A DNA stretch of 64,000 nt from an uncultured Pseudomonadales bacterium (GCA_964635905.1 CAZWPK010000003.1:66459-130458), one strand, 5' to 3'; numbered from the stretch's first letter, positions 3,870-47,919 are shown. The notes: a model not told the origin generated them from the letters alone. Made by a program: numbers and translations.

Positions 3870-5792
3870 ATGCCAAAAACTGACAAAGAGACACGTGTGG
3901 ACGAAAAGAAACCCAAAGAAGAAAAGTCAAATAAGTTTACCGCCAATGGGAAAAAGATGATGAAGCTCGAGTTCGGTTTGAACTTGGATCCGCGTAAATC
4001 CATTTTGTGGCTCGTGATCTTCCTACTTTTTGTACCTTTTCTGTTTTCCTTGTTTCGATCTGGATCCAATGGTCGCATTCCATTATCGCAGCTCCTCTCC
4101 GATATCCAAGAGAATAAAGTTTCAAAGGTAGAGGTCGACGGACCCTCGATCACCGCACGCTACGGTGATGGCGAAATCAAGACGAGTCGCAAAGAGGATT
4201 CCCAAGACCTCACCACGATTTTGCGTCAAGCTGATATTTCTCTCACATCATTGGAGGTCATGGTCAAAGATCAAATGCCCGGACGGATTGTGTTGGATAT
4301 TTTGCTCAACATCTTACCCATGGTCCTCATGGTCATCTTTTTCTTGTTCTTGTTTAGACAAGCACGGGGAGCACAAGGGGACATGATGGGGTTTGGCAAA
4401 TCCAAGGCAAAGTTATTTGCAAAAGGGAAACAAGACATCAAATTCTCCGATGTTGGAGGACTCAAAGAAGCCAAGCAAGAATTAGAGGAAATTGTCGATT
4501 TCCTCAAAAACCCCAAGAAATATCACAATGTCGGAGCCAGAACTCCCAAGGGAGCTCTCCTGATTGGACCTGCAGGGACTGGAAAGACGTTATTGGCACG
4601 TGCAGTGGCTGGAGAAGCCAACGCGCCATTCTTTTCAATGGCAGGGTCGGAATTCATGGAAATGCTGGTTGGTGTTGGAGCATCACGAGTACGTGATTTG
4701 TTCGATACAGCCAAAAAATCCGCTCCCTCCATTATTTTCATCGATGAAATCGATGCAATTGGACGGATGCGTGGACATGGAAGTATGGGAGGTCACGATG
4801 AACGGGAACAGACACTCAATCAGATTCTGGTAGAGATGGATGGATTTCAGCCCAATGACGCTGTTGTCGTATTGGCAGCGACGAACCGAGCAGATTTATT
4901 AGATCCTGCCTTAGTCCGACCTGGCAGATTTGATCGACGGGTGACCCTAGATCTCCCCGATTTGGAAGAACGAAAGTATATTCTTTCCATTCATGCCAAG
5001 AATAAGCCAGTGAGCAAAGAGGTCAGTTGGGAACGCATTGCTAAACGGACCGTTGGTTTTTCTGGTGCCGATCTAGAGAACATGCTCAATGAAGCTGCTA
5101 TCTTGATTGCTCGTGAGAACTGTACGGAAATCACCTCGCCAGATTTGGAAGAGGCTGCCTTAAAGGTCAAGCTTGGTCCTGAGAAGAAACGTCTCCAGTC
5201 TGAGATTGAGCGCAAGATGACCGCCTACCACGAAGGTGGACATGCTATTGTGGCGCACTTTTTGCCCCACACGGATCCAGTGCATCGCATCTCCATTGTT
5301 TCTCGAGGTCGTGCGCTTGGGTTTACCATGGCGAGTCCGGAAGCAGATAAATACCAGCAGGTGAAAGAAGAATTGGAAGAAATGATCTCCGTCATGTTGG
5401 GTGGTCGAGCCGCAGAGCATGTTGTGTTTGGCAAACAAACCGGTGGAGTTAGTTCAGATCTGCAGCAAGTCACCAGAATTGCTCGAGCAATGGTGCTTGA
5501 CTACGGGATGAGTGATCTTCCCCCATTAAACTACGGACCTGTCTATGAGATGGGTGACTATGGCCGCGCCATGATGGAACCGTATGAGATCTCAGAAGAG
5601 TTAAAGACAAAAGTAGATTCGGCAGTCGAGAAAATCGTTGATGAAGGTTGGAAGCGCTCGGTTAAAGTTCTTAAAGACCATCGAAAAGCGTTGGATGCAG
5701 TCGCGGATCGACTACTCGAAGTCGAGAGCATGGATGAAGATGATTTTATTAAGGTCGTTGGCTCTCCTAAGAGTAAAGCAGAAGAGAAATAG
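3870..5792 (+). CDS. ftsH: ATP-dependent zinc metalloprotease FtsH
   Basis: N-terminal TM segments, AAA+ Walker [22 protein letters not shown] region, and the HEGGHAIV zinc-binding HEXXH motif. 640 aa. Confidence 0.95.
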
Positions 5793-8557: not shown

Positions 8558-11131
8558 TTGGACTACAAACAGTTTGCAGAAAAATGCTATAATACTTGTG
8601 CTATGCCAGAAGTAAGAACAGCAGGCCAGGAATTATATGCTCACTTTCGACAAGGTGTTGATGTTTTTTCTGATGCGGTACAAATTAACACACTCAGAAA
8701 CGGGTGGCCGACTAACCTTACTAAAGACTATGGGACTGAAATTGACTTAATGGCGAACTTAGTAAGGCTTTATAGAATTAATCCGCAGAATAGACCAAGT
8801 GAAATTGAAGCTAAAACAATTATTGATCTGCGTGGTCGGGCTGAAGCCGACTTGACAGCAAAACGAGCGGAAGCATCTCATGAAGCTGTAGCAGGCGCTG
8901 ATGACGACACGATTGAAATTCATCAGCTTTATATAAGTGAATTAGAAAACTTTCTCCGATATATAAATGCAATTATTTCAAAATTAGATTTAGCCGCTTC
9001 GATTCAACGCGCTAGGCCAACTGTAGAGGAAAGACGAGGTATTGATCCCGATGCTATTTGGGACTCTTATGCAAAATGGAAAAAGCTTGCACAAGAAAAT
9101 GAAGACACAGCTTCTCCAGATGTGGTTGATAGGGTAGAACGTGCTTTATTAAACTATGCAATGGGTGTTTTGGTTACCAATTTCTGGGAAAGTTGGAATG
9201 ATGAAAAGAAGTTTTCGGATGTGATGAAGCTTCCTGTAGGTAAAGACCAGGTCGGTGGGCGAGATATTACAATTGCGGAACTTATAGACAATCATCCACC
9301 CGGTCCTTCCTCCGGTCCAGGTAGTGAAAAATTGATGCGTGAACGTCTTCAAGTGATTATAAAATCCTTTCAAGGTGGAGTGCATTTTAATGAGATGGCG
9401 AAGAGTGATAACACCCATAAGGATTCCGTAGAGCATCTTCAACATTGGATGTTTAATGGAGACGATTGGGAACAGTTAATGTCGATTCCAGCACTCGCTC
9501 CCGGAGAAAAGGATTTAGGTGATGTTGCGGGCGAAGCAATAGGAATTCTTGGAAGTTGGAATTCAAAGTTTATCAAAACCACTGTTGTTGAAAGAGATGT
9601 AATTGCTGCTCAAGTTGATGCAGAGATTGCAAGTGGAAGAATCCGACTTCCCGGTCGAAAAGAACTAGAAGCAGCACTTCATCAATATGAAAGTCAAAAA
9701 GAAAAAACTTTTTCAGGTATTTCCTTTAGAGATGCTGGTGGCTTAGATGCTAAAACTATTCTGTTCTTATACAACAACGTAGCCAGAAAAGATTACGCAA
9801 GATTTGCAAGTGCTTTTTCTATTGAAATTCAAAAGCCCAGAGTAAAAGCCAAAGAAAAAGTGCGTCAAGAAAAATTTGGTTTATTTCCTTTACGAAAATA
9901 TGGGGAAAGTCCACGTAGAGATGAAAGTGGACACATTGTAAAAAATTTAGAAATGTATATCCCTCATGTCACAATCGCTGTTGGTTGTTATCAATTGGGT
10001 CTGGGTGAATATGAAATCATTCGTAGAGAGCACCCAGTGGGAAGCGGAACTGAGACTTTAGGGATTAAATTCACTGACGCAGCTGGTGTCGTGCGCTTAC
10101 TTACCCCCGAAGAGAAAGAGAAAGCTTTGGCAAAAGGGAAAGCAGCGATGTTACTAGGGTTTCATACTTATCAAGCAAATGGCGGTCCGATTGGTGACGA
10201 TAATGTGGAGCGAAAATCAAATATCACTGCTGTTAGACTTTACGATACTGCTCAGTACCGCCTGAACTACGCTTCAACAGGAAGAGAAGGTAGATTTAAT
10301 TTAGGATATGTAAAGCGACTAAATGTTCACCCTCTAGATTACATGGCTGCGAATGGGAAATCCATTCGAAGATTAATGGCAGATAGGACTCATCGTCAAC
10401 ATGCTGATTATAAGCTGATGGGTGATATTCTTCATGCTCAAGTGGTTGAAGACTATAGTTTTGCAGAGAAAATGTATGCAGGTTATACAGGTGGATTGGA
10501 TGATGCCATAGATAATTTTGACATCATGAAGTTGGTTACTCTAGAACGTCCAAATCAGTTCTTCTCTTTAACAGAGTACATCAATATTGATGACAATGGT
10601 TTAACTGCTTTAAAGAAATTTGTTACTCAGAAGATTGGATATCTTGTTGATCGGAATATGGTAATTGGAAGGGAGGATGCCATTCGAAGTGGCTACTTTG
10701 ATGATAAAGTTTGGGAGAAAATTGTCGAAGTAAAACCTGGCGAGTGGGTCTTTAGTCCGTTACCTTCCATGTTAGCCATGACCGCAGAAGACAAAGTTAA
10801 GTTTAATGAAGATATTAAAAAATTTGGGTTTAAGTCAGCAATGATCAAAGCATTTCTTACTCCTATGTTGATAGAAACATTAATGAGAGTAGGTAGGAGA
10901 GAAGTTGAACCCTACTGGATACAAGGGCTAGTATACATTCTTTCGGGTGAAGATCCGGAGTCTAGGTACGCTATTCGAAATAAAGATAACCTAACGGCTG
11001 CACTTTCCACATCGGATGAAGGTGTTGCGTTTAACTACACATCACCCGAGGTATACAGCATGATTGCTACAGCAGCAAAGGAAGTAAAAGGTGGATTAGA
11101 GGTGTTCTTGAGTCAGCAGGGTGGTCATTAG
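8558..11131 (+). CDS. Hypothetical large soluble protein (857 aa)
   Basis: Long uninterrupted ORF divergent from 7177..8520. It has no TM segment and no P-loop (GSGTET is not a Walker A). A TATAAT sits at 8585..8590 just upstream of an alternative ATG at 8603. Confidence 0.6.
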   Translation: MDYKQFAEKCYNTCAMPEVRTAGQELYAHFRQGVDVFSDAVQINTLRNGWPTNLTKDYGTEIDLMANLVRLYRINPQNRPSEIEAKTIIDLRGRAEADLTAKRAEASHEAVAGADDDTIEIHQLYISELENFLRYINAIISKLDLAASIQRARPTVEERRGIDPDAIWDSYAKWKKLAQENEDTASPDVVDRVERALLNYAMGVLVTNFWESWNDEKKFSDVMKLPVGKDQVGGRDITIAELIDNHPPGPSSGPGSEKLMRERLQVIIKSFQGGVHFNEMAKSDNTHKDSVEHLQHWMFNGDDWEQLMSIPALAPGEKDLGDVAGEAIGILGSWNSKFIKTTVVERDVIAAQVDAEIASGRIRLPGRKELEAALHQYESQKEKTFSGISFRDAGGLDAKTILFLYNNVARKDYARFASAFSIEIQKPRVKAKEKVRQEKFGLFPLRKYGESPRRDESGHIVKNLEMYIPHVTIAVGCYQLGLGEYEIIRREHPVGSGTETLGIKFTDAAGVVRLLTPEEKEKALAKGKAAMLLGFHTYQANGGPIGDDNVERKSNITAVRLYDTAQYRLNYASTGREGRFNLGYVKRLNVHPLDYMAANGKSIRRLMADRTHRQHADYKLMGDILHAQVVEDYSFAEKMYAGYTGGLDDAIDNFDIMKLVTLERPNQFFSLTEYINIDDNGLTALKKFVTQKIGYLVDRNMVIGREDAIRSGYFDDKVWEKIVEVKPGEWVFSPLPSMLAMTAEDKVKFNEDIKKFGFKSAMIKAFLTPMLIETLMRVGRREVEPYWIQGLVYILSGEDPESRYAIRNKDNLTAALSTSDEGVAFNYTSPEVYSMIATAAKEVKGGLEVFLSQQGGH

Positions 11132-34291: not shown

Positions 34292-34738
34292 ATGACTCCG
34301 TTGATTGAAAATAAAAAAGCTCGAAAGGATTACACGATTATCGATACGTTGGAAGCGGGAATCGTTTTGACTGGGCAAGAAGTGAAATCTCTGCGCGCGA
34401 AACGTGGGGTCATCTCTGATAGCTTTGTCAAAATCATGGGAAATGAAGCCTTTTTGATTAATGCCCGCATTGAGCAACATCAAACCACAGCCCACGTGAC
34501 CTATGATCCCACCATGTCCAGGAAATTACTGCTCCATCGACGTCAAATTCGTATGCTTGAAGAAGCTACGCACACCAAGGGATTTAGTGCAATCCCCCTC
34601 ATGCTTGGGGTGAAATCAAATTTCATTAAGGTCCTCATTGGTCTAGGAAAAGGAAAAAAGTTAGTAGATCGAAAAGAGGAACTCAAACAACGCGATTTAC
34701 GGCGCGAAGAAGATTCTCTACTCAAAAAGCTTCGTTAG
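34292..34738 (+). CDS. smpB: SsrA-binding protein
   Basis: KKARKDYTIIDTLEAGIVLTGQEVKSLR...LLLHRRQI, the classic SmpB signature. Confidence 0.9.
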   Translation: MTPLIENKKARKDYTIIDTLEAGIVLTGQEVKSLRAKRGVISDSFVKIMGNEAFLINARIEQHQTTAHVTYDPTMSRKLLLHRRQIRMLEEATHTKGFSAIPLMLGVKSNFIKVLIGLGKGKKLVDRKEELKQRDLRREEDSLLKKLR

Positions 34739-35139
34739 GGTGGAGATGCCCGGATTGAACCGGGGTCCGTATATGAACCTTGCCATCGTCTACACACGTA
34801 GGTCATTCTTGATCAAGCTAGATCGGTGAACTTCCAAGCCGTATTCTAGCGTCTCCAATGCTAAATCTTTTATCGGTAGGATTGGATACGACCGACAAGT
34901 CACACTGACTGGGTTTCCACCCATTCGCTTACATCAGTGAGATAAGACGAATGAATGCTAGCTTAAGCTAATGCGTAAGCTGGTTGTTCGTTGGTGCCAA
35001 ACACGAAGTTTGCCACACGAGCGAACAAGTTGCTAAGTTTTGAGTTAGCAGTTATTGTTTTGGCTCTGTTTTACATCTTCTCTAGCCAAAGATGGTGTGC
35101 AGATGGTAAAGAGCGATACACGTCGAAACGTACATCCCC
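34739..35139 (-). ncRNA. ssrA: tmRNA (SsrA), standard one-piece form
   Basis: Minus-strand 5' end GGGGAUGUACGUUUCGACGUG (the conserved UUCGACG). The 3' end has a T-arm CCCGG-TTCAAT-CCGGG and an acceptor CATCTCC-A-CC pairing with the 5' GGGGATG. An internal ORF encodes the tag ANFVFGTNEQPAYALA followed by TAA. The 3' end abuts the smpB stop. Confidence 0.8.
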
Positions 35140-35978: not shown

Positions 35979-36065
35979 GGAGAGGTCGCATAGTGGCCTA
36001 GTGCGGAAGTCTTGAAAACTTCTGTGGGTTTACGCTCACCGTGGGTTCGAATCCCACCCTCTCCG
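35979..36065 (+). tRNA. tRNA-Ser (anticodon UGA), type II with a long variable arm
   Basis: Acceptor GGAGAGG/CCTCTCC, anticodon stem GAAGT/ACTTC with loop CUUGAAA, T-arm GTGGG-TTCGAAT-CCCAC, discriminator G. Confidence 0.8.
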
Positions 36066-37817
36066 CAATACTGAACAAACAGGCTCTAGATCAAGCATTT
36101 GCACGGATAGATCAGCATATTTCCCAGGTTGTAATCTATTTGCTGTGTCCAACATTTCTCTCTTGCCTTTTTCAACTAAAAAGTACGATTTATCCCCATC
36201 TATCAGTAATTTTCGTTCAAATACTCGTAGGTTAGAACCAAGTTTCTTTAATACATAAGTCTTTTCTTGAACCGTGCCATGCTCAAATTGGTATCTTGCG
36301 GTACTGACAAAATCAAATGTTTCCTTAGTTTGAGCGATCCACTGTTGCTGTTGAACGTCAGCTTCTTCAAGTTTCTTTTTTAGGTCTGCTTTCTTATTTG
36401 AGATAGATAATTCCTCTTCCTCGTATAGTTTTTTTCTATCACCATCGTATTCAAGATACTCAGGAGAAATGCGTATTCGAATAAGCGACTTTAACTGATC
36501 ATCCATCCGCTTATACTCTCGAAGTAGTCTCTCTTTTACTTCCGTGTCTTTTTTTTCTTCTGTCAGGTTTAACTCATGAATATACTCAAACGCCCAATTT
36601 TTAAACTCCTCTGGAATTTCAAACCTTTGTAATTCTTGATCTATTTTCCTTTCCAGATCTTTCACAGACAGACTTCCTTGAGTACAGTTTTCATGGATCT
36701 TTTTCGTACAACGGTAATGGACATACTGAAGCGTCTTAGGATGTTCCATCTCTTCCAATTTTGTATTACAAGCAGGGCATTTGCTGGTTAATTTTCCTTT
36801 ATGGAATTTGGTCTTACAGACTGGGCAGATTATTTGCCATTTTTCTTCACAAGTGATTGACCCCTGACATTCTCCGCAGATCAGCACTTGTTTATATGGA
36901 AAGTCCTTTTTTGTGTAATGAGAAGTTCTTTTTCCCGATAAACGAATTTGTATTTGCTCAAATTCTCCTTCTTTGATCATTGGTTCATGTTTTCCAGTCT
37001 CTTCTTTAATTTCCTTTTCAACCCTCCTCCTCATGAGTCTATAGTAAAAAGGATCTCTAAGTATTCCGTAGAAAGTTGTTCGACTCATGGGGCGACTTGG
37101 GTGCTTCAAGGTCTGACGTGTCTTGTATCCCCACTCGTTGTTTAGTAAATCAAAGATCTTCATAGGAGCCCCACCTCCCGCAATCATTTTTAGGGCATTT
37201 TGGATTATTGGGAAACGCTCTCGATCTGTGATAATTGTATTTTCCTTTGTTAAAGGGTTCGTATAATTCAAATACCCAGGCTTCGCAGGACCACCCCACT
37301 CTTTCCTTTCAATGAATTTCTCTCGATTGCCTCGACGAACATTCTTACTAAGATCATCAGATGATTTTTTAGTGAGAGTAAAGTCAATTCCTAGAGACAT
37401 CTTGTCATCACTGTTATTGGTAAAAATTCTCTGTGGGGTTCTAAATTCAATTAGTTTTTCCTCATCAAAAAGATAGATAAAACTCCCTGAATCCTTACTG
37501 TTTCGTGCAATTCGAGATGAATCCCAAGCTAAAACTGCATTTCCTTCTCCCATTTCAATGCGTTGAACCATTTCGTTAAAATACGTTCTCCCAATTTTAA
37601 AAGCACTTTTTGACTCTTTATACAATTCGACTATTCTCAATCCAAACCTATTCGCATACTCGGAGAGTATTTTCTCTTGATCAGGGAGTGATGCTATTTG
37701 CTTGTCCTCACTATCACTGCTCTTACGACAATAGATAAAGAATTTAATTTTTTGGAGATCAATTTCATGAGTTCGCAATGGAAAACCGCCACTTGTTAAA
37801 ATAGCGAATGAAAACAA
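36036..37817 (-). CDS. Large serine recombinase (phage/ICE-type integrase) with its 5' end interrupted by an IS30-family element
   Basis: Resolvase catalytic domain (FIYCRKSSDSEDKQIASLPDQ, LAWDSSRIARN), a recombinase domain and a Cys4 zinc ribbon (CGECQG...CPVC...CPAC). The last 10 codons are antisense to the tRNA-Ser T-arm (GWDSNPR). The first ~15 codons (..SGGFPLR..) are read out of the left IS inverted repeat, so the native N-terminus is probably displaced. Confidence 0.75.
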   Translation of the reverse strand: MFSFAILTSGGFPLRTHEIDLQKIKFFIYCRKSSDSEDKQIASLPDQEKILSEYANRFGLRIVELYKESKSAFKIGRTYFNEMVQRIEMGEGNAVLAWDSSRIARNSKDSGSFIYLFDEEKLIEFRTPQRIFTNNSDDKMSLGIDFTLTKKSSDDLSKNVRRGNREKFIERKEWGGPAKPGYLNYTNPLTKENTIITDRERFPIIQNALKMIAGGGAPMKIFDLLNNEWGYKTRQTLKHPSRPMSRTTFYGILRDPFYYRLMRRRVEKEIKEETGKHEPMIKEGEFEQIQIRLSGKRTSHYTKKDFPYKQVLICGECQGSITCEEKWQIICPVCKTKFHKGKLTSKCPACNTKLEEMEHPKTLQYVHYRCTKKIHENCTQGSLSVKDLERKIDQELQRFEIPEEFKNWAFEYIHELNLTEEKKDTEVKERLLREYKRMDDQLKSLIRIRISPEYLEYDGDRKKLYEEEELSISNKKADLKKKLEEADVQQQQWIAQTKETFDFVSTARYQFEHGTVQEKTYVLKKLGSNLRVFERKLLIDGDKSYFLVEKGKREMLDTANRLQPGKYADLSVQMLDLEPVCSVLRRGWDSNPR

Positions 37818-38791
37818 GGAAGCATTTAAGTGATCAGGAACGGGATCAGATTGCAGTCTGGAGAGCCCAAAAAACTAGTATTCGGGAGATTGCTCGGAGA
37901 CTGGGACGACATCACTCCTCCATTGAAGCAGAGCTCCAGAGGAACCGATGGGGTGAAGCATATATTGCCATCCATGCAAAGAAAGAGACGAGGAAGAGAA
38001 TGCAGACTGCTAGGAAGAAACATCCTCTAAAGGATCCTGCAACATATGCGTATGTATTGGAGAGACTCCGGTGGGGATGGAGTCCAGAAGAGATCTCTGG
38101 AAGATTGGAATTGGAGAGAGGAGAAAAGTTCTTGCATCATGAAAGTATCTACCGATTCATCTATGCCCAGAAAAACAAAGGTTTGAAGTTGTGGGAGTAC
38201 CTTCCCAGAAAACAGAAGAAAAGAAGGAAACAAACAGGGAGAAGTAGTCACAAGAGTAGGATTCCAAACAGAGTCTCCATTCACCAGAGGCCAGAGGAGA
38301 TTGAGTCAAGAGAGGTGTTTGGACATTGGGAGGGAGATTCAGTGGTGGGACTAGGAAAGAAGGAATCCATACAGAGGTAGAGAGAAAGACCAGGTTTCTT
38401 CTCGCTAAGAAGGTTGCAAAGATCGGAGCTGTGGAAACAGCTGATGCTCAGGTCCAACTGTTTGCACCACTTCCAAACAAAGCAAGGAAGACCACCACGG
38501 TGGACAATGGAAAAGAATTCACTAAACATGAACAGGTCACGATACATATGGGACTGAAGATCTATTTTGCAGATCCATATTCATCTTGGCAAAGAGGAAC
38601 CAATGAAAACACAAATGGAAGACTGAGAAGATATCTTCCCAAGAAAACCAGTTTCAAAGAATTGGAACAAACAGAGCTGGATGAGATTGTAGCAGAGATC
38701 AACAATCATCCCAGAAAGTGTTTACAATACAGAAAGCCAGTAGAAGCATTTAATCAGGAGTTAACAACTACTGGCGGTTTTCCATTGCGAA
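37772..38791 (+). mobile_element. IS30-family insertion sequence (~1020 bp) with 20-bp perfect terminal inverted repeats
   Basis: Left inverted repeat ttcgcaatggaaaaccgcca at 37772..37791, and its exact reverse complement at 38772..38791. The transposase reads out through the right repeat (..TGGFPLRM*). Confidence 0.7.
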
Positions 38792-38796
38792 TGTAG
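37808..38796 (+). pseudogene. IS30-family DDE transposase split by a -1 frameshift into two ORFs
   Basis: ORF1 37808..38380 carries the HTH and the first Asp (GHWEGDSVVG). ORF2 38326..38796 carries DNGKEF and WQRGTNENTNG. The catalytic triad is therefore split across frames, and no canonical slippery heptamer is visible in the overlap. Confidence 0.65.
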
Positions 38797-38876
38797 GAAA
38801 CTTAGTTGAGAGAATCAATATGGTATTATAGGTGATATAGAGACTACTATCTCTTTCAGTAAACAGGAGGTTTTGT

Positions 38877-39713
38877 ATGTCAGAAATTCCAAATCCACCA
38901 CCTAACCCTGGACAGAAAACACAGGCAGAAATTGATGCAGAGTACGCAGGTATTAAACCTATTATCGATGCTTCTACGGTTCCTGATTCAGTACCTTTAG
39001 CTCATCAAGAAACTGGAGCTGGGGATATATTCAAACCTGTCATTGAAATCAAGAGAGGTGAAAATCGTGAATTTGGTGAGAAGTTCCCTCCAATGCCAGA
39101 CGTTCTCTTATCAAAGGTTGATGAGATTCGTGGTGTGGAGGACTTATATCCAGTCTTAGACCTTATTCGTACGTCTAATCAAGAAGGTACATTAGTGGGT
39201 GAATATTACGATTCGCTTAAAGTTCGCATAGCCGAAAAGATGACGAGAGTATTAGTTCGAGCTGCTAAAGCCTCAACACTTGACCCAGAGATAATAGGAT
39301 TGGAAATGCGGAAGTATGCATCCTATTCTTACCTCTCTCCAGAGCAAGTTCAAACAGTAGAAGCCGCTATCCGCTCACGCTCAGAGTTTAATTTGGCAAC
39401 TGCCTCCCTTGTTGATATCCATCGAAAATATGGAACACGAGGGAACTTACAAAACGATATAGATAATATTGATGACCCTACATACTTAATGTTCATTGCA
39501 GAGTCCATAGATGACCAAATAAGAGGAGGTGGAGCTATTGGGAAGGATGGACGAAGAGAAGAAGCAAGCGCTCTTGATTCCGCAACGAAAGCGTATGGAG
39601 AAGGCATAATTTATGCAATCTCAGAGAGAATGTTGGAATTAAAAAATCCAATGCAGGCGGCAATGCGGAGAATATCTCAGAAGATGGAAAAGTACCTCCG
39701 AGATTCTAAGTAA
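38877..39713 (+). CDS. Hypothetical protein (278 aa)
   Basis: GGAGG RBS. No recognisable motifs. It lies in the AT-rich island. Confidence 0.5.
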   Translation: MSEIPNPPPNPGQKTQAEIDAEYAGIKPIIDASTVPDSVPLAHQETGAGDIFKPVIEIKRGENREFGEKFPPMPDVLLSKVDEIRGVEDLYPVLDLIRTSNQEGTLVGEYYDSLKVRIAEKMTRVLVRAAKASTLDPEIIGLEMRKYASYSYLSPEQVQTVEAAIRSRSEFNLATASLVDIHRKYGTRGNLQNDIDNIDDPTYLMFIAESIDDQIRGGGAIGKDGRREEASALDSATKAYGEGIIYAISERMLELKNPMQAAMRRISQKMEKYLRDSK

Positions 39714-39876
39714 TAAATAAGTAGCCTACTTGCTTACTAAATTCTTACTTGTTTAAATTGCAACAACCATTTCAGATGTATTTATGGTGTTCAAAGTTCT
39801 AAAATAGGTTAGAACTTCGTTCACGGTTCTCCGCCACAACTGACAGAAATAAAAACAAAGTTACATAAATAGACAA

Positions 39877-40863
39877 CTATTTTGCTAATTCTCTTTTAAT
39901 TTCAGCAATGGTCAATCGATCTTTGTCTTGTAATTTTCTGATCTTTTTAATGATGGACACCTGGTCTTGACCATATAACTGATATCCGCCTTGGGAATAC
40001 TCAGCCACTTGTAATAATCCCTCTTTTGTCCAGTGACGAATGGTTGGCACGGTTGCACCAACGAGCTCAGCCAGCTCGCCAATTTTGAGGACATTTTTCT
40101 TTTCTAACACTCTCTCTTGAGCTTTACCCTCTAAAGCTTGAAGGTAAATATCTAATGAGCGATTTATTGCTTCATACATTAGAGCGTAGTAATCCGCGAG
40201 TGAGCCTCCAAGTTGAGCCTTTTCAATACTGGTAATGTATTGCTTCCGTTCCTCTTTACGGATAATGGCTGGAGGATAACCAACTTGCATGAGTAGTAAG
40301 TTCATCAGTAAACGAGCAACTCTGCCATTCCCGTCCACAAAAGGGTGAATACTTACTAACTTGAAATGAGCATCCACGGCTACCGTCAAAGGATTGTCCA
40401 TATTCTTCTGTAACCATGAAACATACTCGCCCATGAGCTCTGGGACCTTCATGGCATTGGGCATAATAACGGTTGAACCTGCGATGCGAACCGGAACAGT
40501 GCGATATCGTCCGGCTTGGTTATCAGCGATTTTTTGGAGAATCAGCTGATGCAAATCCAAGATTGTATTCTCTGTAATATCCTGTTTTGTCGTATCAATT
40601 CGGTGAATCACCCAATCAAAGGCTTGGGCATGGTTCACTGCCTCTAAGTACTCTTGAAGGGTCTTCCCATCGACTGTGACGCCTTTTTCCACCACTAAAG
40701 CAGTTTCAGCTCTAGAGAGGGTATTCCCCTCAATAGCGTTGGACGTATACGTCAACTCAATCTTAAACCATTCACGAAGGTTCGTTACAAGATCAACCGA
40801 AAAAGGCCTGAAACCATCCAATCGTTGTTTTTTCTCCTCTAGTGTAGCCAGAATGTTTGCCAT
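39877..40863 (-). CDS. Fic (AMPylase) family protein with an N-terminal inhibitory motif and a C-terminal MerR-type HTH
   Basis: Fic active site HPFVDGNGRVARLLMN. Inhibitory [ST]xxxE[GN] motif TYTSNAIEGN near the N-terminus. The C-terminus (LKIGELAELVGATVPTIRHWTKEGLL...) resembles a MerR-family HTH. Confidence 0.75.
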   Translation of the reverse strand: MANILATLEEKKQRLDGFRPFSVDLVTNLREWFKIELTYTSNAIEGNTLSRAETALVVEKGVTVDGKTLQEYLEAVNHAQAFDWVIHRIDTTKQDITENTILDLHQLILQKIADNQAGRYRTVPVRIAGSTVIMPNAMKVPELMGEYVSWLQKNMDNPLTVAVDAHFKLVSIHPFVDGNGRVARLLMNLLLMQVGYPPAIIRKEERKQYITSIEKAQLGGSLADYYALMYEAINRSLDIYLQALEGKAQERVLEKKNVLKIGELAELVGATVPTIRHWTKEGLLQVAEYSQGGYQLYGQDQVSIIKKIRKLQDKDRLTIAEIKRELAK

Positions 40864-41279
40864 GTAATGTTAAGTGTAACGTTACACTTCATGGTTGTCA
40901 AGCCAGATATCAAGTACCTACACATCACCAATTTTAGTGGTTTTATGTCTGTGTTGTCGCAAATACGAAGACGGAAAATTCAGTTCCATGCCGTCAGTAA
41001 GGTTTTCAAAAGTTTTTTATGATTTGGCAGAGATCTCCAGGCTTTGAAGGCTGGAGGTGAATGCCTGCCCGGAGTGAAGCGGCGGTACAATGTCATGATT
41101 GATGATTCAACTCATATTGGGAGACAGATCCACTGCAGAGTTTATCGAGATTCTGTGGGAGAATGGAGCGCATGTACAAATTACAGCATAAATTGATTTT
41201 TTGCAGTAACGCTTCTCGGTAAAGTAAATAAGGTATTCACATTCCAGCACACAACTCTGGTTGTTCTACCATAGTAGCT

Positions 41280-41627
41280 ATGCACATTTCTGTTCAAATA
41301 ATCAAAAAACAAACCAACTCCACTCTCAATCGTTCTCAGAAGATGTGGTTGATCTTGATCATTGGGGTCTCTGTAGTGCATCTTATTCGGGATATCCTGC
41401 AGGAATTTGGGATACGATACTGGATTTCAACAATTCTGGTGAAGCCAGGACCACATACGAAGGCATTACTTTGGCATCCCTACAATACACTGATCATCGA
41501 GCTTTTTCTCATTCTTTGTTCACTTGTTATCCTCAAGCGCGAACGGTTTGGACGACTAGGATGGGCAACCGTCTTCGCTGTTATCGTTACCGGATTGGCC
41601 TGGGTCTACTACTGGTATTTCGTGTGA
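41280..41627 (+). CDS. Hypothetical small membrane protein
   Basis: Three hydrophobic segments. Weak call that overlaps the alternative ORF 41261..41680. Confidence 0.3.
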   Translation: MHISVQIIKKQTNSTLNRSQKMWLILIIGVSVVHLIRDILQEFGIRYWISTILVKPGPHTKALLWHPYNTLIIELFLILCSLVILKRERFGRLGWATVFAVIVTGLAWVYYWYFV

Positions 41628-41691
41628 AAGCTTTGCGTTTGATCGAGCAGGGGAAAAGTGTTAGACTACAAGTACGGTAATTAAAATTGAC

Positions 41692-41717
41692 AAGGTGGGT
41701 TTCCCACCTTTTTTTAA
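41692..41717 (+). terminator. Rho-independent terminator
   Basis: aaGGTGGG-ttt-CCCACCtt followed by TTTTTTT. It lies between the island genes and nusA. Confidence 0.6.
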
Positions 41718-41731
41718 AGCGAAGTTCTTGA

Positions 41732-42862
41732 GTGCTTCAAGGATTTGCATGTAGTTTAGGAGTTACTATGGCAGCTGTTTCGTCATCTGCTAGTGCACGT
41801 ACAGAATTTGCAACGGCACTAGCTCAAATTGCTTCGGAGCGTGGAATAGAAGTATCCACCATTATTGCTGCAATTGGAGAAGCCATTAAAGCGGCCTACC
41901 GTAAGGACTATTTATTAGTACATCCTGAGGAAGAGTTTGAGGATGCTGATTTTGACGTGGTTGTGAATGAAGACACTGGAGAAGCTCGAGTCTATGATGT
42001 CACGGTAGAACCAAAGAAAGATGTTACCCCTCCAGGGTTTGGTCGGATTGCTGCTCAAACCGCCAAACAGGTCATATTGCAAAAAGTTCGCGAAGCGGAA
42101 AAGGATGCAATCATTGCGGATTATTCTACGAAGATCGGCAACCTAATTCAAGGAACAGTGATTCGTTACGATGACGAGCACGTGATTGTGGATATTGGGC
42201 GCGGTCAGGCCTGGATGCCCGTAGAAGAACAGATGCGTGGAGAACCTTATCGCATCAATAGTCGATTTACCTTCTTTATTAAAGAAATTCGAGAAACACA
42301 TCGAGGCAAGACAATTATTGTGTCCCGTGCCGACAAGCAGCTGATCGCGAAATTATTCGAACGAGAAGTTCCTGAAGTGTCTTCCGGAGCCGTCGAAATA
42401 GTCTCTATCGCTCGAGAAGCTGGTGTTCGTACCAAGATCGCGGTAGCCTCCGCTCAAGAAGGAGTCGATCCAGTGGGTGCTTGTGTCGGTCAAAAGGGAG
42501 TTCGAGTTCAAGAAGTGATCAAAGAGGTGAATAACGAGAAAATTGACATTATTCAACACTCGTCCGATCAACGCATGTTCATTCAAACAGCTTTGGCCCC
42601 AGCAGAACACCTCAAGGTAACCTTAGACGACCCCTCAAAGACAGCCAAAGTTATCTGTCCCGATGATCAGCTCTCGTTAGCAATTGGACGCAATGGTCAA
42701 AACGCTAGACTCGCTGCTCGTTTGACAGGGTGGAGAATTACGATTGTGGGAGAAACCATCACCCCTGAAATTGAAACTACGGAGTTTGCTCCAGAAGAAC
42801 CAACCGTAGAGCCAGTAGTATCAGCAGAGGCTGAACCAGTCTTAGAAACGAAAACAGCATAA
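41732..42862 (+). CDS. nusA: Transcription termination/antitermination factor NusA
   Basis: NusA N-terminal domain (ALAQIASERGIEVSTIIAAIGEAIKAAYRK), S1 and tandem KH regions (GACVGQKGVRVQEV). The start is likely the internal MAAVSSS at ~41768. Confidence 0.85.
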   Translation: MLQGFACSLGVTMAAVSSSASARTEFATALAQIASERGIEVSTIIAAIGEAIKAAYRKDYLLVHPEEEFEDADFDVVVNEDTGEARVYDVTVEPKKDVTPPGFGRIAAQTAKQVILQKVREAEKDAIIADYSTKIGNLIQGTVIRYDDEHVIVDIGRGQAWMPVEEQMRGEPYRINSRFTFFIKEIRETHRGKTIIVSRADKQLIAKLFEREVPEVSSGAVEIVSIAREAGVRTKIAVASAQEGVDPVGACVGQKGVRVQEVIKEVNNEKIDIIQHSSDQRMFIQTALAPAEHLKVTLDDPSKTAKVICPDDQLSLAIGRNGQNARLAARLTGWRITIVGETITPEIETTEFAPEEPTVEPVVSAEAEPVLETKTA

Positions 42863-42874
42863 AGGAAGAATTCA

Positions 42875-44290
42875 ATGTCACTTTTACCTCGACCACCAGT
42901 AATTGCAATCATGGGACATGTTGACCACGGGAAAACATCGCTCTTGGATGCAATTCGCAAGACCAATGTGGCCGGTGGGGAAGCTGGCGGAATTACGCAG
43001 CATATTGGCGCGTATCAGATCGAGTACAACAAGCGGTTACTCACCTTCTTAGACACCCCGGGACATGCGGCGTTTTCTAAAATGCGCTCCCGTGGTGCCA
43101 ATGTTACGGATATCGTCATTTTGGTAGTCGCTGCCGATGATGGTGTGAAGCCGCAAACCTTGGAATCGATTCAACATATCAAACAATCCGGAGTAGAGTA
43201 CATCGTGGCAATCAATAAAATTGATATGCCTGGAGCTGATCCAACCCGGGTCAAAACGCAGCTGGCTGAACACGAAGTCTTTGTCGAAGGATTTGGTGGA
43301 AGTGTCTCGGTTGTTGAAGTCAGTGCGAAGACCAAGCAGGGTATGGATGCCTTACTTGATTTAATCCTCCTTACCGCGGATGTCGCTGATCTTCAAGCAG
43401 ATCCACAAGCTTCTTTTAAAGGTGTTGTGATCGAATCCGGAAAAGATCCTCGAAAAGGGGTCTATGCCACGGTCTTAATCCAAGAAGGTTCCTTAAAACT
43501 CAAAGACACATTCTATGTCGGGGACATTGCAGAAAAAGTGCGCATTATGCAGGATGCATTTGGCAAACCTGTAGCGTTGGCAACCCCATCGATGCCAGTC
43601 CAAGTGCTGGGATGGACCGACGTTCCCGCAGTGGGTTCCACCGTAACTGGTGCAGCTATCTCTCAGGATGCAGTTGAGCGTGCAGCTGTTGTTCCACCCG
43701 ATGCAGAAAAACTCAGTGTCATCATAAAAGCAGATGTCGTTGGATCACAAGAAGCGCTAGTTGGCAGTATGCCAGCAGATGTGAATGTGATTGTTTCCAG
43801 TGTCGGTGACGTGAGTGATTCGGATGTCTTATTGGCGCAAACAACCGGAGCACGCATTTTGGGATTTGGAATTAAGGTAACAAAATCAGTACAAGATCTG
43901 GCAGATGTGCATGGAGTTAAAATTAAAAACTATCGCATTATCTACGAGTTATTAGAGGATCTTGAACGACAAGTGTTCCTCTTTAAGAATCCGAAAGCCA
44001 ACGAACAGGTGATTGGTAAAGCAGAAATCATCGCCCAGTTTGAGATTAAAGGGGATAAGATTGCCGGATGTAAAATCATCGAAGGCGAGTTTAAACGTGG
44101 ACAAAATATCTACTATCACTTAAAACGTGCCGAAGCTGAGATCGGAGATCCTCGAATTCGTTCCTTAAAACAGGGGAAGATGGATGTGGAATCTGTCAAA
44201 GCTCCCAACGAATGTGGATTAGTCTTTAGAGGTACTGTTCGCTTCCAAATTGGTGACACCATTGAGTGTTACAGCTTCAAAGAAATTTAA
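42875..44290 (+). CDS. infB: Translation initiation factor IF-2, short form lacking the N-terminal domains
   Basis: G domain ([29 protein letters not shown]) followed by beta-barrel and C-terminal domains. Only 471 aa. The nusA-infB order is conserved. Confidence 0.85.
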
Positions 44291-45291: not shown

Positions 45292-45420
45292 CTACTATAC
45301 GGGATAGAGTGACCACAGGGGAAGTCTGAGACAACCAAGTCAGATAGAATCTCAAAAAGTTGCTTGTATTTGATACAATGACACCCTGTAGTAATCTCTG
45401 GAGGGGTCGCATAGTGGTTT

Positions 45421-45505
45421 AGTGCAGCGGTTTACTAAACCGCCGTAACGAAAGTTACCGAGGGTTCGAATCCCTCCCCCTCCGCAACAAAGTTGTATTT
45501 CTTAC
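45421..45505 (+). tRNA. Type II (Ser-like) tRNA with an atypical anticodon loop UUACUAA (canonical reading gives anticodon ACU)
   Basis: Acceptor GGAGGGG/CCCCTCC, long variable arm, T-arm GAGGG-TTCGAAT-CCCTC, discriminator G. Anticodon stem GCGGT/ACCGC. It is a near-copy of the downstream tRNA-Ser(GCU) with G34 changed to A. Confidence 0.6.
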
Positions 45506-47737: not shown

Positions 47738-47824
47738 GGAAGCGTCGCATAGTGGCCTAGTGCAGCGGTTTGCTAAACCGCGACCCTTAATCGGGTCTCG
47801 TGGGTTCGAATCCCACCGCTTCCG
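47738..47824 (+). tRNA. tRNA-Ser (anticodon GCU)
   Basis: Acceptor GGAAGCG/CGCTTCC, anticodon stem GCGGT/ACCGC with loop UUGCUAA, long variable arm, T-arm GTGGG-TTCGAAT-CCCAC. Confidence 0.8.
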
Positions 47825-47919
47825 CCTCTGTGCTTGATACCATCACACCCCTTAACTTTTGAATGTTTCGTTTTTTGCATTTTCTCTGTAGGATGTGACT
47901 AGTAGATCTACACACAGAT

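Follow-up and report, generated by a model that had tools for sequence, protein, structure and literature searches.

The sequence analyzed here, referred to as the window, is a stretch of 64,000 nucleotides from an assembly assigned to an uncultured Pseudomonadales bacterium (GCA_964635905.1, CAZWPK010000003.1:66459–130458). Relatives of its NusA protein assign it to Candidatus Woesebacteria, within the Candidate Phyla Radiation (CPR, or Patescibacteria). Our subject is the region between its tRNA-Ser(UGA) gene and nusA, which holds a large serine recombinase (LSR) gene, an IS30-family element, an orphan open reading frame (ORF), a gene for a Fic–MerR fusion and a small membrane-protein gene, and in particular the integrative element that the first three appear to form. 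Coordinates count from the first letter of the window, and related loci are denoted by L numbers.

The tRNA-Ser(UGA) gene (35979–36066, plus strand) is intact according to ARAGORN, the Rfam tRNA model (56.6 bits) and alignment with the Ser tRNAs of relatives, and carries the T-loop sequence TTCGAA at 36046–36051. By its D arm, among other features, it belongs to the local Woesebacteria type, and an arrival together with the element was rejected on these grounds. The LSR gene (36036–37778, minus strand) converges on it and is present in what we regard as its integrated form. Its stop codon at 36036–36038 lies inside the tRNA T arm, giving an antisense overlap of 31 nt, and the protein ends in …RRGWDSNPR (CSVLRRGWDSNPR, then stop). 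The initial annotation had described exactly this arrangement, with C-terminal LSR codons antisense to the T arm. The length of 590 residues that it gave counted codons inside the IS30 repeat, and the native start codon is gone: the first 7 nt of the LSR ORF (TTGCGAA) belong to the IS30 repeat, and the protein at NCBI (580 residues) starts at the TTG inside it.

The LSR contains a resolvase domain (PF00239, residues 27–167, E = 1.9e-15), followed by a recombinase domain (PF07508, E = 2.3e-5; 25 bits against a cut-off of 21.1) and a putative zinc ribbon that scores 18.5 bits with PF13408, under the cut-off of 25.3. The family has eight invariant cysteines, and for several homologues a precomputed match to PF13408 is on record. 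The protein matches an integrase family in PHROG (2.4e-48), shares the YCRKSS motif (R18, S20) that is invariant in 23 homologues, and retains 47 of 47 family-invariant residues; similarity to solved LSR structures is limited to the catalytic domain. By its resolvase and recombinase domains it is a member of the large serine recombinases, with predicted attP × attB catalysis.

Directly after the LSR gene, as the initial annotation had noted, lies an IS30-family element (37772–38791, plus strand; 37763–38800 with a looser repeat match). Elements of this family have a single DDE transposase with an N-terminal helix–turn–helix (HTH), terminal inverted repeats and a target duplication of 2–3 bp. 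The window copy shares the HTH_38 and DDE (rve) domains, exact 20-nt inverted repeats (37772–37791 and 38772–38791) and a length of about 1.02 kb, and its two halves match NF033563 at positions 1–150 and 144–267, thus over the full profile. It differs from the family in being defective: a −1 frameshift near 38345–38350, with no slippery site, splits the transposase, and no target-site duplication is found in the flanks. The two-ORF structure is repeated in independent Logan assemblies.

The IS30 element is followed by an orphan ORF of 278 codons (38877–39713, plus strand), preceded by an AGGAGG ribosome-binding site 7 nt before its ATG. Its sole match among 5.8 billion proteins is itself, and it has no match in Pfam, PHROG, PADLOC or NCBIfam. 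Its AlphaFold prediction, of low confidence (pLDDT 62), consists largely of helices and gave no fold match at E < 0.4. Two orphan genes had been placed here; the second lies beyond the Fic gene (41280–41627) and belongs to a protein family.

Probable ends of the element and the empty site

The far end of the element was located with an nhmmer profile of the far (P′) attachment arm, built from 27 far-arm sequences of other elements and none from the window. It has a single match in the window (39834–39799, minus strand; 21.8 bits, E = 5.8e-6), the next best having E = 0.49, and the matching sequence, GCGGAGAACCGTGAACGAAGTTCTAACCTATTTTAG, lines up in every column with the corresponding arms in L023, L026, L044 and L090. 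The match begins at one copy of a 7-nt direct repeat, TCTCCGC, found at 36060–36066 and 39828–39834 (core GCGGAGA in LSR orientation). The first copy, the attL core, covers the 3′ strand of the tRNA acceptor, the discriminator and one further base, and the tRNA gene would form the B arm of attL. Together, the profile match and the repeat delimit an element of 3,768 bp (36067–39834), containing the LSR gene, the frameshifted IS30 and, as its only cargo, the 278-codon gene; without IS30 it measures 2.75 kb.

The putative attR (39753–39834, minus strand) consists of the core (39834–39828), the P′ arm with its motif GTTCTAACCT at 39815–39806, and a displaced LSR tail, TVNEVLTYFRTLNTINTSEMVVAI followed by a stop, at 39827–39753. 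Both a regular expression and a protein HMM missed this tail because the window has VLT where the family has VRT. Joining the ends in silico restores an LSR frame of 587 residues, in which …LEPVCSVLRR continues into TVNEVLTYFRTLNTINTSEMVVAI and the stop. We reconstructed attP from 39760–39834 plus 36067–36140, and attB from the tRNA 3′ end plus 39835 onward. At the junctions, GGTTCTCCGC meets AATACTGAAC in attP and CCCTCTCCGC meets CACAACTGAC in attB; the longer versions are CACGGTTCTCCGCAATACTGAACAAAC for the attP circle and CCCACCCTCTCCGCCACAACTGACAG for the empty attB. Because the attB obtained in this way reads …CCCTCTCCGC followed by CACAACTGACAG, the tRNA-Ser gene would once have had an encoded CCA, which is now CAA in the window.

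Base composition changes at the same point. GC content is 0.372 in the LSR gene and 0.444 in the flanks. Of all tetranucleotide windows in the 64 kb, the ten that deviate most fall within 36.0–39.75 kb, and composition is ordinary again from about 39.8 kb, with the Fic–MerR gene and everything beyond it unremarkable. The AT-richness noted by eye for the region is therefore confirmed up to 39.75 kb and does not extend to 41.7 kb.

A counterpart that lacks the element was found in a related genome (L105, GCA_964477065.1). Its tRNA-Ser(UGA), with a 3′ end reading …CCCTCTCCGCCA / …CCGTGGGTTCGAATCCCACCCTCTCCGCCA, is convergent with a 91%-identical Fic–MerR gene at a distance of 103 nt, an interval free of LSR, IS30 and orphan gene. 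By its arrangement, which is the one predicted on removing 36067–39834, this junction is an empty site. In L006 and L007, which are more distant (79% NusA identity), only about 140 nt separate tRNA-Ser(UGA) from nusA. In these two genomes, with the tRNA gene on the other strand, the tRNA-to-nusA junction that had been proposed as a check is free of the whole block. Exact-protein look-ups for island-free strain variants returned only the same genome. Five assemblies of that genome contain no alternative junctions, which is weak evidence, as minor variants are pruned in assembly.

These results make it very likely that 36067–39834 is an integrative element placed at the extreme 3′ end of tRNA-Ser(UGA) by its own LSR, a member of a family that would exchange its C-terminal tail on integration, and that the DNA from Fic–MerR onward is resident. 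The initial annotation had taken the whole block from the tRNA gene to the hairpin before nusA (35979–41717) as one genomic island, with Fic–MerR and the small ORFs as cargo. An integrated element with an LSR at the tRNA 3′ end stands; its right end moves to 39834, where the far-arm profile placed attR. That one island spans the entire block is now very improbable. Such an island would account for the missing block in L006 and L007, and for the company kept by Fic–MerR, whose Fic part matches the candidate defence families PDC-S04 and SoFic and which in L106 adjoins mobile-element genes (Replic_Relax and TraG-like). It is contradicted by the position of attR, by the normal composition from 39.8 kb and by L105, where tRNA-Ser faces Fic–MerR with no element between. 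Moreover, the conserved Fic–MerR DNA unit is confined to 39855–40902 (77–81% nucleotide identity), and its neighbours differ in each of four genomes checked. Fic–MerR is no cargo of the element; it is a highly conserved Patescibacteria gene unit.

No second right end was found farther downstream. Neither alignment nor the P′ profile detected a tRNA fragment or att-like sequence near 41.0–41.7 kb, and an inverted attL copy proposed by eye at 41010–41080 (shared TGAA and dyad) ranked 64th of 634 windows and was discarded as noise. The strong terminator taken as the end of the block does exist, as a hairpin with a T-run at 41692–41717 (plus strand); since it is conserved in L006 and L007, which lack the whole block, it is part of the nusA leader and not an island boundary.

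Logan assemblies from six runs all break at 41035–41074, with contigs ending at 41071 and starting at 41045. Their 27-nt overlap fits a 33-nt exact repeat (41042–41074) with a second copy outside the window; the repeat overlaps a 22-nt near-palindrome, CTCCAGGCTT-TG-AAGGCTGGAG. An explanation of these breaks as an island end or as excision polymorphism was dropped, because the repeat accounts for them and contigs cross 39834.

The recombinase family and its predicted attachment sites

The protein search with the LSR was followed through the best 120 of 448 matches, and those with a named source are all from Patescibacteria. We retrieved 80 metagenomic and 2 viral LSR loci; a viral origin gained no support from IMG/VR, which gave only two weak relatives. 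Of the 23 homologues examined, almost all have the C-terminus …W(R/L)RxxDSNPx, which is the translated antisense strand of the acceptor and T arms of a tRNA. Among 67 non-redundant loci with a readable LSR 3′ end, the stop codon is overlapped by a convergent tRNA gene in 31; the rest include 5 with an antisense T-arm in the tail and 21 with a different, conserved tail. For homologues of at least 37% identity, the overlap occurs in 22 of 27. The overlapping tRNA genes are those for Gln(UUG/CUG), Asn, Ser(GGA/UGA/CGA/GCU), Met, Tyr and Arg.

L028 and L029, whose elements sit at tRNA-Gln, match L030 with 100% identity for 11,677 nt and part from it immediately after TGGCTG, the complement of the CAGCCA end of tRNA-Gln. 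Past this break the LSR frame of L030 runs on for 36 codons (ALVDDFRTPSW…). At L040, where the arrangement is a tandem one, the break falls at this point too, and at L034 (tRNA-Met) a 17-nt direct repeat, 10.76 kb apart, covers the last 14 nt of the tRNA. Homologues without an adjacent tRNA carry the tail …NP(I/V)L(R/Q)x(L/V)D(D/E)VRT(W/Y)…, which in tRNA-adjacent homologues is swapped for antisense-tRNA codons at the same position. A tail profile located the displaced tail-coding piece 2–9 kb upstream of the LSR gene, on the same strand, in L023, L026, L044 (twice), L056 and L091. The break points and displaced tails together place attP inside the LSR reading frame, so that integration would exchange the C-terminal 24–37 residues, and the antisense overlap across the family makes the LSR–tRNA overlap a mark of the integrated state.

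According to this scheme, crossover would occur within a few bases of the tRNA acceptor end (here TCTCCGC) and would leave the tRNA whole. The LSR frame would be cut at the crossover, and the integrated form would read from …RR into GWDSNPR and the stop; in the window, these final 7 sense codons and the stop, beyond the shared core, are antisense tRNA sequence. The native last 24 codons (TVNEVLTYF…) would be left at the opposite end of the element.

Related elements carry genes for DUF5659, Cro/CI-type HTH, Prim-Pol/PriCT primase, DnaD-like and methylase proteins, and by this gene content are small integrative, probably replicative elements. A comparison of shared cargo found no window gene next to LSR homologues. 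Far-arm or tail remnants of the family form arrays in L106 (77–111, 513–550 and 1142–1178), L044 (943–1014 and 1559–1642), L079 (12938–13012 and 15240–15308) and L065 (13174–13245), which suggests that integration took place repeatedly or in tandem at a single site. The relative L007 and L106 belong to one genome assembly.

Both element arms contain a motif that resembles part of the target. The V-R-T codons of the tail read GTT(C/A)GAACCT in 23 of 27 far arms, and the same ten bases stand inside the LSR gene at a fixed −63/−65 from the tRNA end, in another frame that reads L/F-E-P. At this second position GAACC is present in 27 of 32 non-redundant loci and GAACCT in 25 of 32, against about 26% expected from codon use (GAA 68%, CCT 38%). 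Retention in two reading frames points to a DNA site and not to a protein motif. The motif corresponds to the tRNA T-loop sequence TTCGAA(CC). The distance from the core to the centre of the T-loop, compared with that from the core to the centre of the far-arm motif, is 11 versus 16 nt in the window, 14 versus 19 in L026, 14 versus 19 in L044a and 10 versus 15 in L091; this offset of 5 nt, with the motif farther from the crossover on the element arm, was obtained in silico: automatic scoring of six junction pairs gave it in four, the window among them. Cores are 4–8 nt long in the scored pairs and 17 nt in L034.

The near-arm (P) motif of the window, CTAGAGCC (36082–36089, minus strand, in LSR orientation), is a variant of TT(A/C)GAACC read as the LSR codons L-E-P; its centre lies 20 nt from the core, compared with 19 nt in L023. 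A degenerate third copy, M1 (36127–36136, minus strand), has ATTACAACCT instead of GTT(A/C)GAACCT and occupies the −63/−65 position that is fixed in the family; 43–45 nt separate it from the near-arm motif and 83 nt from the T-loop of the tRNA itself, and it could be an accessory binding site. In the recognition model that follows from these positions, the LSR would read TTCGAA in the tRNA T-loop on the bacterial side and copies of it 5 bp farther out on both element arms. For the LI integrase, the half-site motif of the zinc-ribbon domain reportedly lies about 5 bp farther out in attP than in attB, and the putative zinc ribbon of the LSR is proposed to read the T-loop.

Several points weigh against the reading of 36067–39834 as an element integrated by its own LSR. 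All evidence is in silico. By itself the TCTCCGC repeat is at chance level, with about 7 such 7-mers expected, and local alignment alone missed attR: when the tRNA 3′ half and its flank were aligned to 38.8–41.76 kb, nothing exceeded shuffled controls, and shared 7–8-mers occurred at chance number. The P′ and P motifs of the window (TTCTAA and CTAGAG) deviate from the TTCGAA consensus, and the remaining two of the six junction pairs reach the 5-nt offset only with a hand-chosen core. Genes for replication and regulation such as its relatives carry are missing from the element, no primase or helicase being found in 36067–39834. Neither a circular junction nor an empty site was found in the same population, and Logan contigs run unbroken across 39834. 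Finally, L006 (9767–9855) and L007 (9767–9854) have tRNA-Ser(UGA) in the opposite orientation with respect to nusA, and its other neighbour in L105 is different (a polyprenyl synthase). The tRNA-Ser locus is, judging by these arrangements, rearranged in further ways, and the tRNA neighbourhood a rearrangement hot spot.

The strand changes of tRNA-Ser(UGA) in L006 and L007, together with that of tRNA-Ser(ACU) in L006, would be explained if the recombinase were a chromosomal invertase or resolvase acting around tRNA genes rather than an integrase. The geometric centre of the core falls on CG or GC, a palindromic central dinucleotide that is unusual for LSRs and would remove polarity, and there is a weak PHROG match to "DNA invertase". 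We nevertheless regard such a role as highly improbable: with at least 570 residues, the protein shows the complete architecture of an LSR, displaced tails are in direct and not inverted orientation, no LSR fragment or att arm was found near the flipped tRNAs of L006 and L007, and five assemblies show 36067–39834 in a single orientation. The comparison of insertion and empty site likewise favours integration, as in the preferred reading of the region as an integrated element.

The IS30 insertion and the flanking genes

The IS30 repeat adjoins the LSR gene at its third codon, and removing the insertion sequence in silico leaves an in-frame TAA, after which no ATG, GTG or TTG follows; the TTG within the repeat is the sole start in frame. 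By comparison, all 11 LSR homologues examined start at an ATG 8–20 codons before YCRKSS. In the window, the native start codon and the leader hairpin found in relatives are gone, with IS30 in their place, which we take as the result of a deletion at the LSR 5′ end associated with IS30. As start and leader are lost, the element is probably immobile, though the 570-codon frame, the invariant residues and both att sites survive.

The leader hairpin itself, of about 55 nt, stands just upstream of the LSR start in L023 (~4960–5020), L027 (~815–880), L031 (~9915–9985) and L037 (~9915–9985), with the sequence AATGCCyCCAT…GGGACAG…ACCGTTCTGA…GGTGGrGGCATT; it could act as a leader or in regulation.

The surviving frame leaves some room for an element that is still autonomously mobile, its LSR being translated from the TTG in the IS30 repeat, possibly by way of a promoter reading out of the IS. 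The two att sites can still be recognised, all 47 invariant residues are kept over 570 open codons, the TTG start is annotated by NCBI, and the repeat end TTGCGA resembles a −35 box. We consider this unlikely, since the TTG is not preceded by a convincing ribosome-binding site, the 11 homologues use an upstream ATG, and the hairpin seen in four of the loci is missing here. Furthermore, the LSR is in its integrated form, without the conserved tail, and the five assemblies show no alternative junctions. A probably immobile copy thus remains the preferred reading.

The resident sequence beyond attR begins with the Fic–MerR unit (39855–40902, minus strand; coding sequence 39877–40863). The protein of 328 residues combines a Fic domain (PF02661, 5.4e-22) with a MerR HTH (PF13411, 1.9e-15), as had been annotated, and its translation contains the active-site motif HPFVDGNGRVAR and an N-terminal inhibitory SNAIEG. 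Class II Fic proteins are characterized by HxFx(D/E)GNGRxxR and an (S/T)xxxE(G/N) inhibitory motif N-terminal to the active site. By these motifs the protein is a class II, N-terminally autoinhibited Fic AMP-transferase, with predicted activity. Its promoter, TTGACA-17-TACACT, holds an 18-nt palindrome, AAGTGTAACGTTACACTT (40872–40889), in the spacer. MerR promoter spacers are typically 19–20 nt long; the spacer here has 17 nt, and the MerR part is without an effector-binding domain. Among the best 120 of 6,666 protein matches, identity ranges from 65 to 91%, and all named sources are Patescibacteria.

In the spacer that follows (40864–41279) no gene was identified; for 40900–41270 there was no Rfam match, and fold z-scores were −1.0 and −0.6. 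The small membrane-protein gene, likewise outside the element (41280–41627, plus strand), has 39 family representatives (best E = 1.8e-51), and its true start is probably near 41343. Public assemblies call a 111-residue protein at 41345–41680, which overlaps this frame and is probably in the wrong one. Beyond the hairpin lie nusA (41768–42862) and infB (42875–44290), both on the plus strand.

On the other side, the tRNA-Ser(UGA) gene is preceded by smpB (34292–34738, plus strand), a transfer-messenger RNA (tmRNA) gene (34739–35139, minus strand) and a comF-like gene (35183–35902/35953, minus strand). The tmRNA encodes a tag peptide of 28 residues, ANSKLSNLFARVANFVFGTNEQPAYALA, and that of the relative L006 is also 28 residues long; such tags usually have about 10. 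Farther downstream, a Ser-type tRNA with anticodon ACU (A34) is found at 45400–45485 in the window and at 5171–5256 in L005, 14640–14728 in L006 (on the opposite strand) and 14763–14848 in L007. It is conserved in these four Woesebacteria genomes beside a normal tRNA-Ser(GCU) (47738–47826 in the window). An A at tRNA position 34 is unusual outside tRNA-Arg(ACG).

Relation to known systems and implications

By the textbook rule, tyrosine integrases use tRNA genes and serine integrases use protein-coding genes. The entire LSR family, across Woese-, Levyi-, Pace- and WWE3-type Patescibacteria, may break this rule. Serine-family integrases were described as not known to target tRNA genes in the Islander paper (PMC4383910), the sites of serine recombinases lie within protein-coding genes according to a review of integrative mobilizable elements (PMC5704250), and the word "tRNA" is absent from a large LSR survey (PMC10083194).

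With the serine integrases phiC31, Bxb1, A118/LI, TP901-1, CcrAB, TnpX and XisF, the LSR shares the order of catalytic domain, recombinase domain and, as a putative third part, cysteine-rich zinc ribbon, as well as a very short common core of attL and attR and, as is said of the LI integrase, a half-site about 5 bp farther out in attP. It differs from them in targeting tRNA 3′ ends, in having attP within its own reading frame and in its T-loop-mimicking motif. The resemblance to tRNA islands with tyrosine integrases (Islander-type, P4-like) is one of layout: insertion at the tRNA 3′ end, an intact tRNA, an adjacent integrase gene and a flanking direct repeat. The enzyme is unrelated, and the repeat is typically about 40 nt in those islands versus 4–17 nt in the LSR family, so that LSR elements supply almost none of the tRNA. 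The window element is therefore not an Islander-type island, having a serine recombinase and a displaced fragment of only 7 nt, although it would work similarly.

An integrase frame cut on integration is known from tyrosine recombinases. In myxophage Mx8 (intP/intX), attP reportedly lies inside the int gene, and the C-terminus of the prophage integrase differs. SSV1-type archaeal integrases are likewise described as having attP in the int gene, which integration splits (PMC8371274). The frame is cut as in the LSR family, by tyrosine and not serine enzymes; in the open-access literature we found no serine integrase with attP inside its gene.

The tycheposons of Prochlorococcus are the closest precedent for the association itself. 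According to the preprint that describes them, 27 of 937 tRNA-associated elements encode an LSR (bioRxiv 10.1101/2020.12.28.424599), so the LSR–tRNA association is not wholly unseen. Like the present elements they are small, tRNA-associated and integrative; as described there, they are cyanobacterial, carry primase/helicase modules and variable cargo, and are defined by a deep-branching tyrosine recombinase, a replication module and one of seven Prochlorococcus tRNA genes. The window element has neither a tyrosine recombinase nor a replication module and resides in a Woesebacteria host, which sets it outside this class. The consulted part of the preprint reports no ORF-spanning attP or T-loop motif (10.1101/2020.12.28.424599).

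Taken together, these comparisons indicate that the LSR family is unusual in three predicted features: targeting of tRNA 3′ ends, a reading-frame-spanning attP with tail exchange, and T-loop-like half-sites. More tentatively, and with somewhat less than even confidence, we propose a large, hitherto undescribed CPR class of serine integrases with a TTCGAA half-site for the universally conserved T-loop, crossover at the acceptor end and attP in the integrase's own gene, in which tail exchange would serve as a directionality switch and M1 as an accessory site. If so, integration would remove the (L/V)DDVRT(W/Y) tail: the full-length enzyme would integrate, and the truncated prophage form would be locked or would depend on a partner for excision. 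The system would then do without a separate directionality factor. The directionality idea is testable, the sequence alone being enough to specify the two forms of the protein and the four att sites. Serine integrases are favoured for genome engineering because they require no host factors and use short sites, and enzymes that read the T-loop and acceptor end would offer ready-made conserved landing sites in many genomes, with possible engineering use. For the window, the analysis corrects the boundary of the island and indicates a copy that is probably dead. For the CPR bacteria, about whose mobile elements little has been learned, the LSR family would provide a handle on gene flow.

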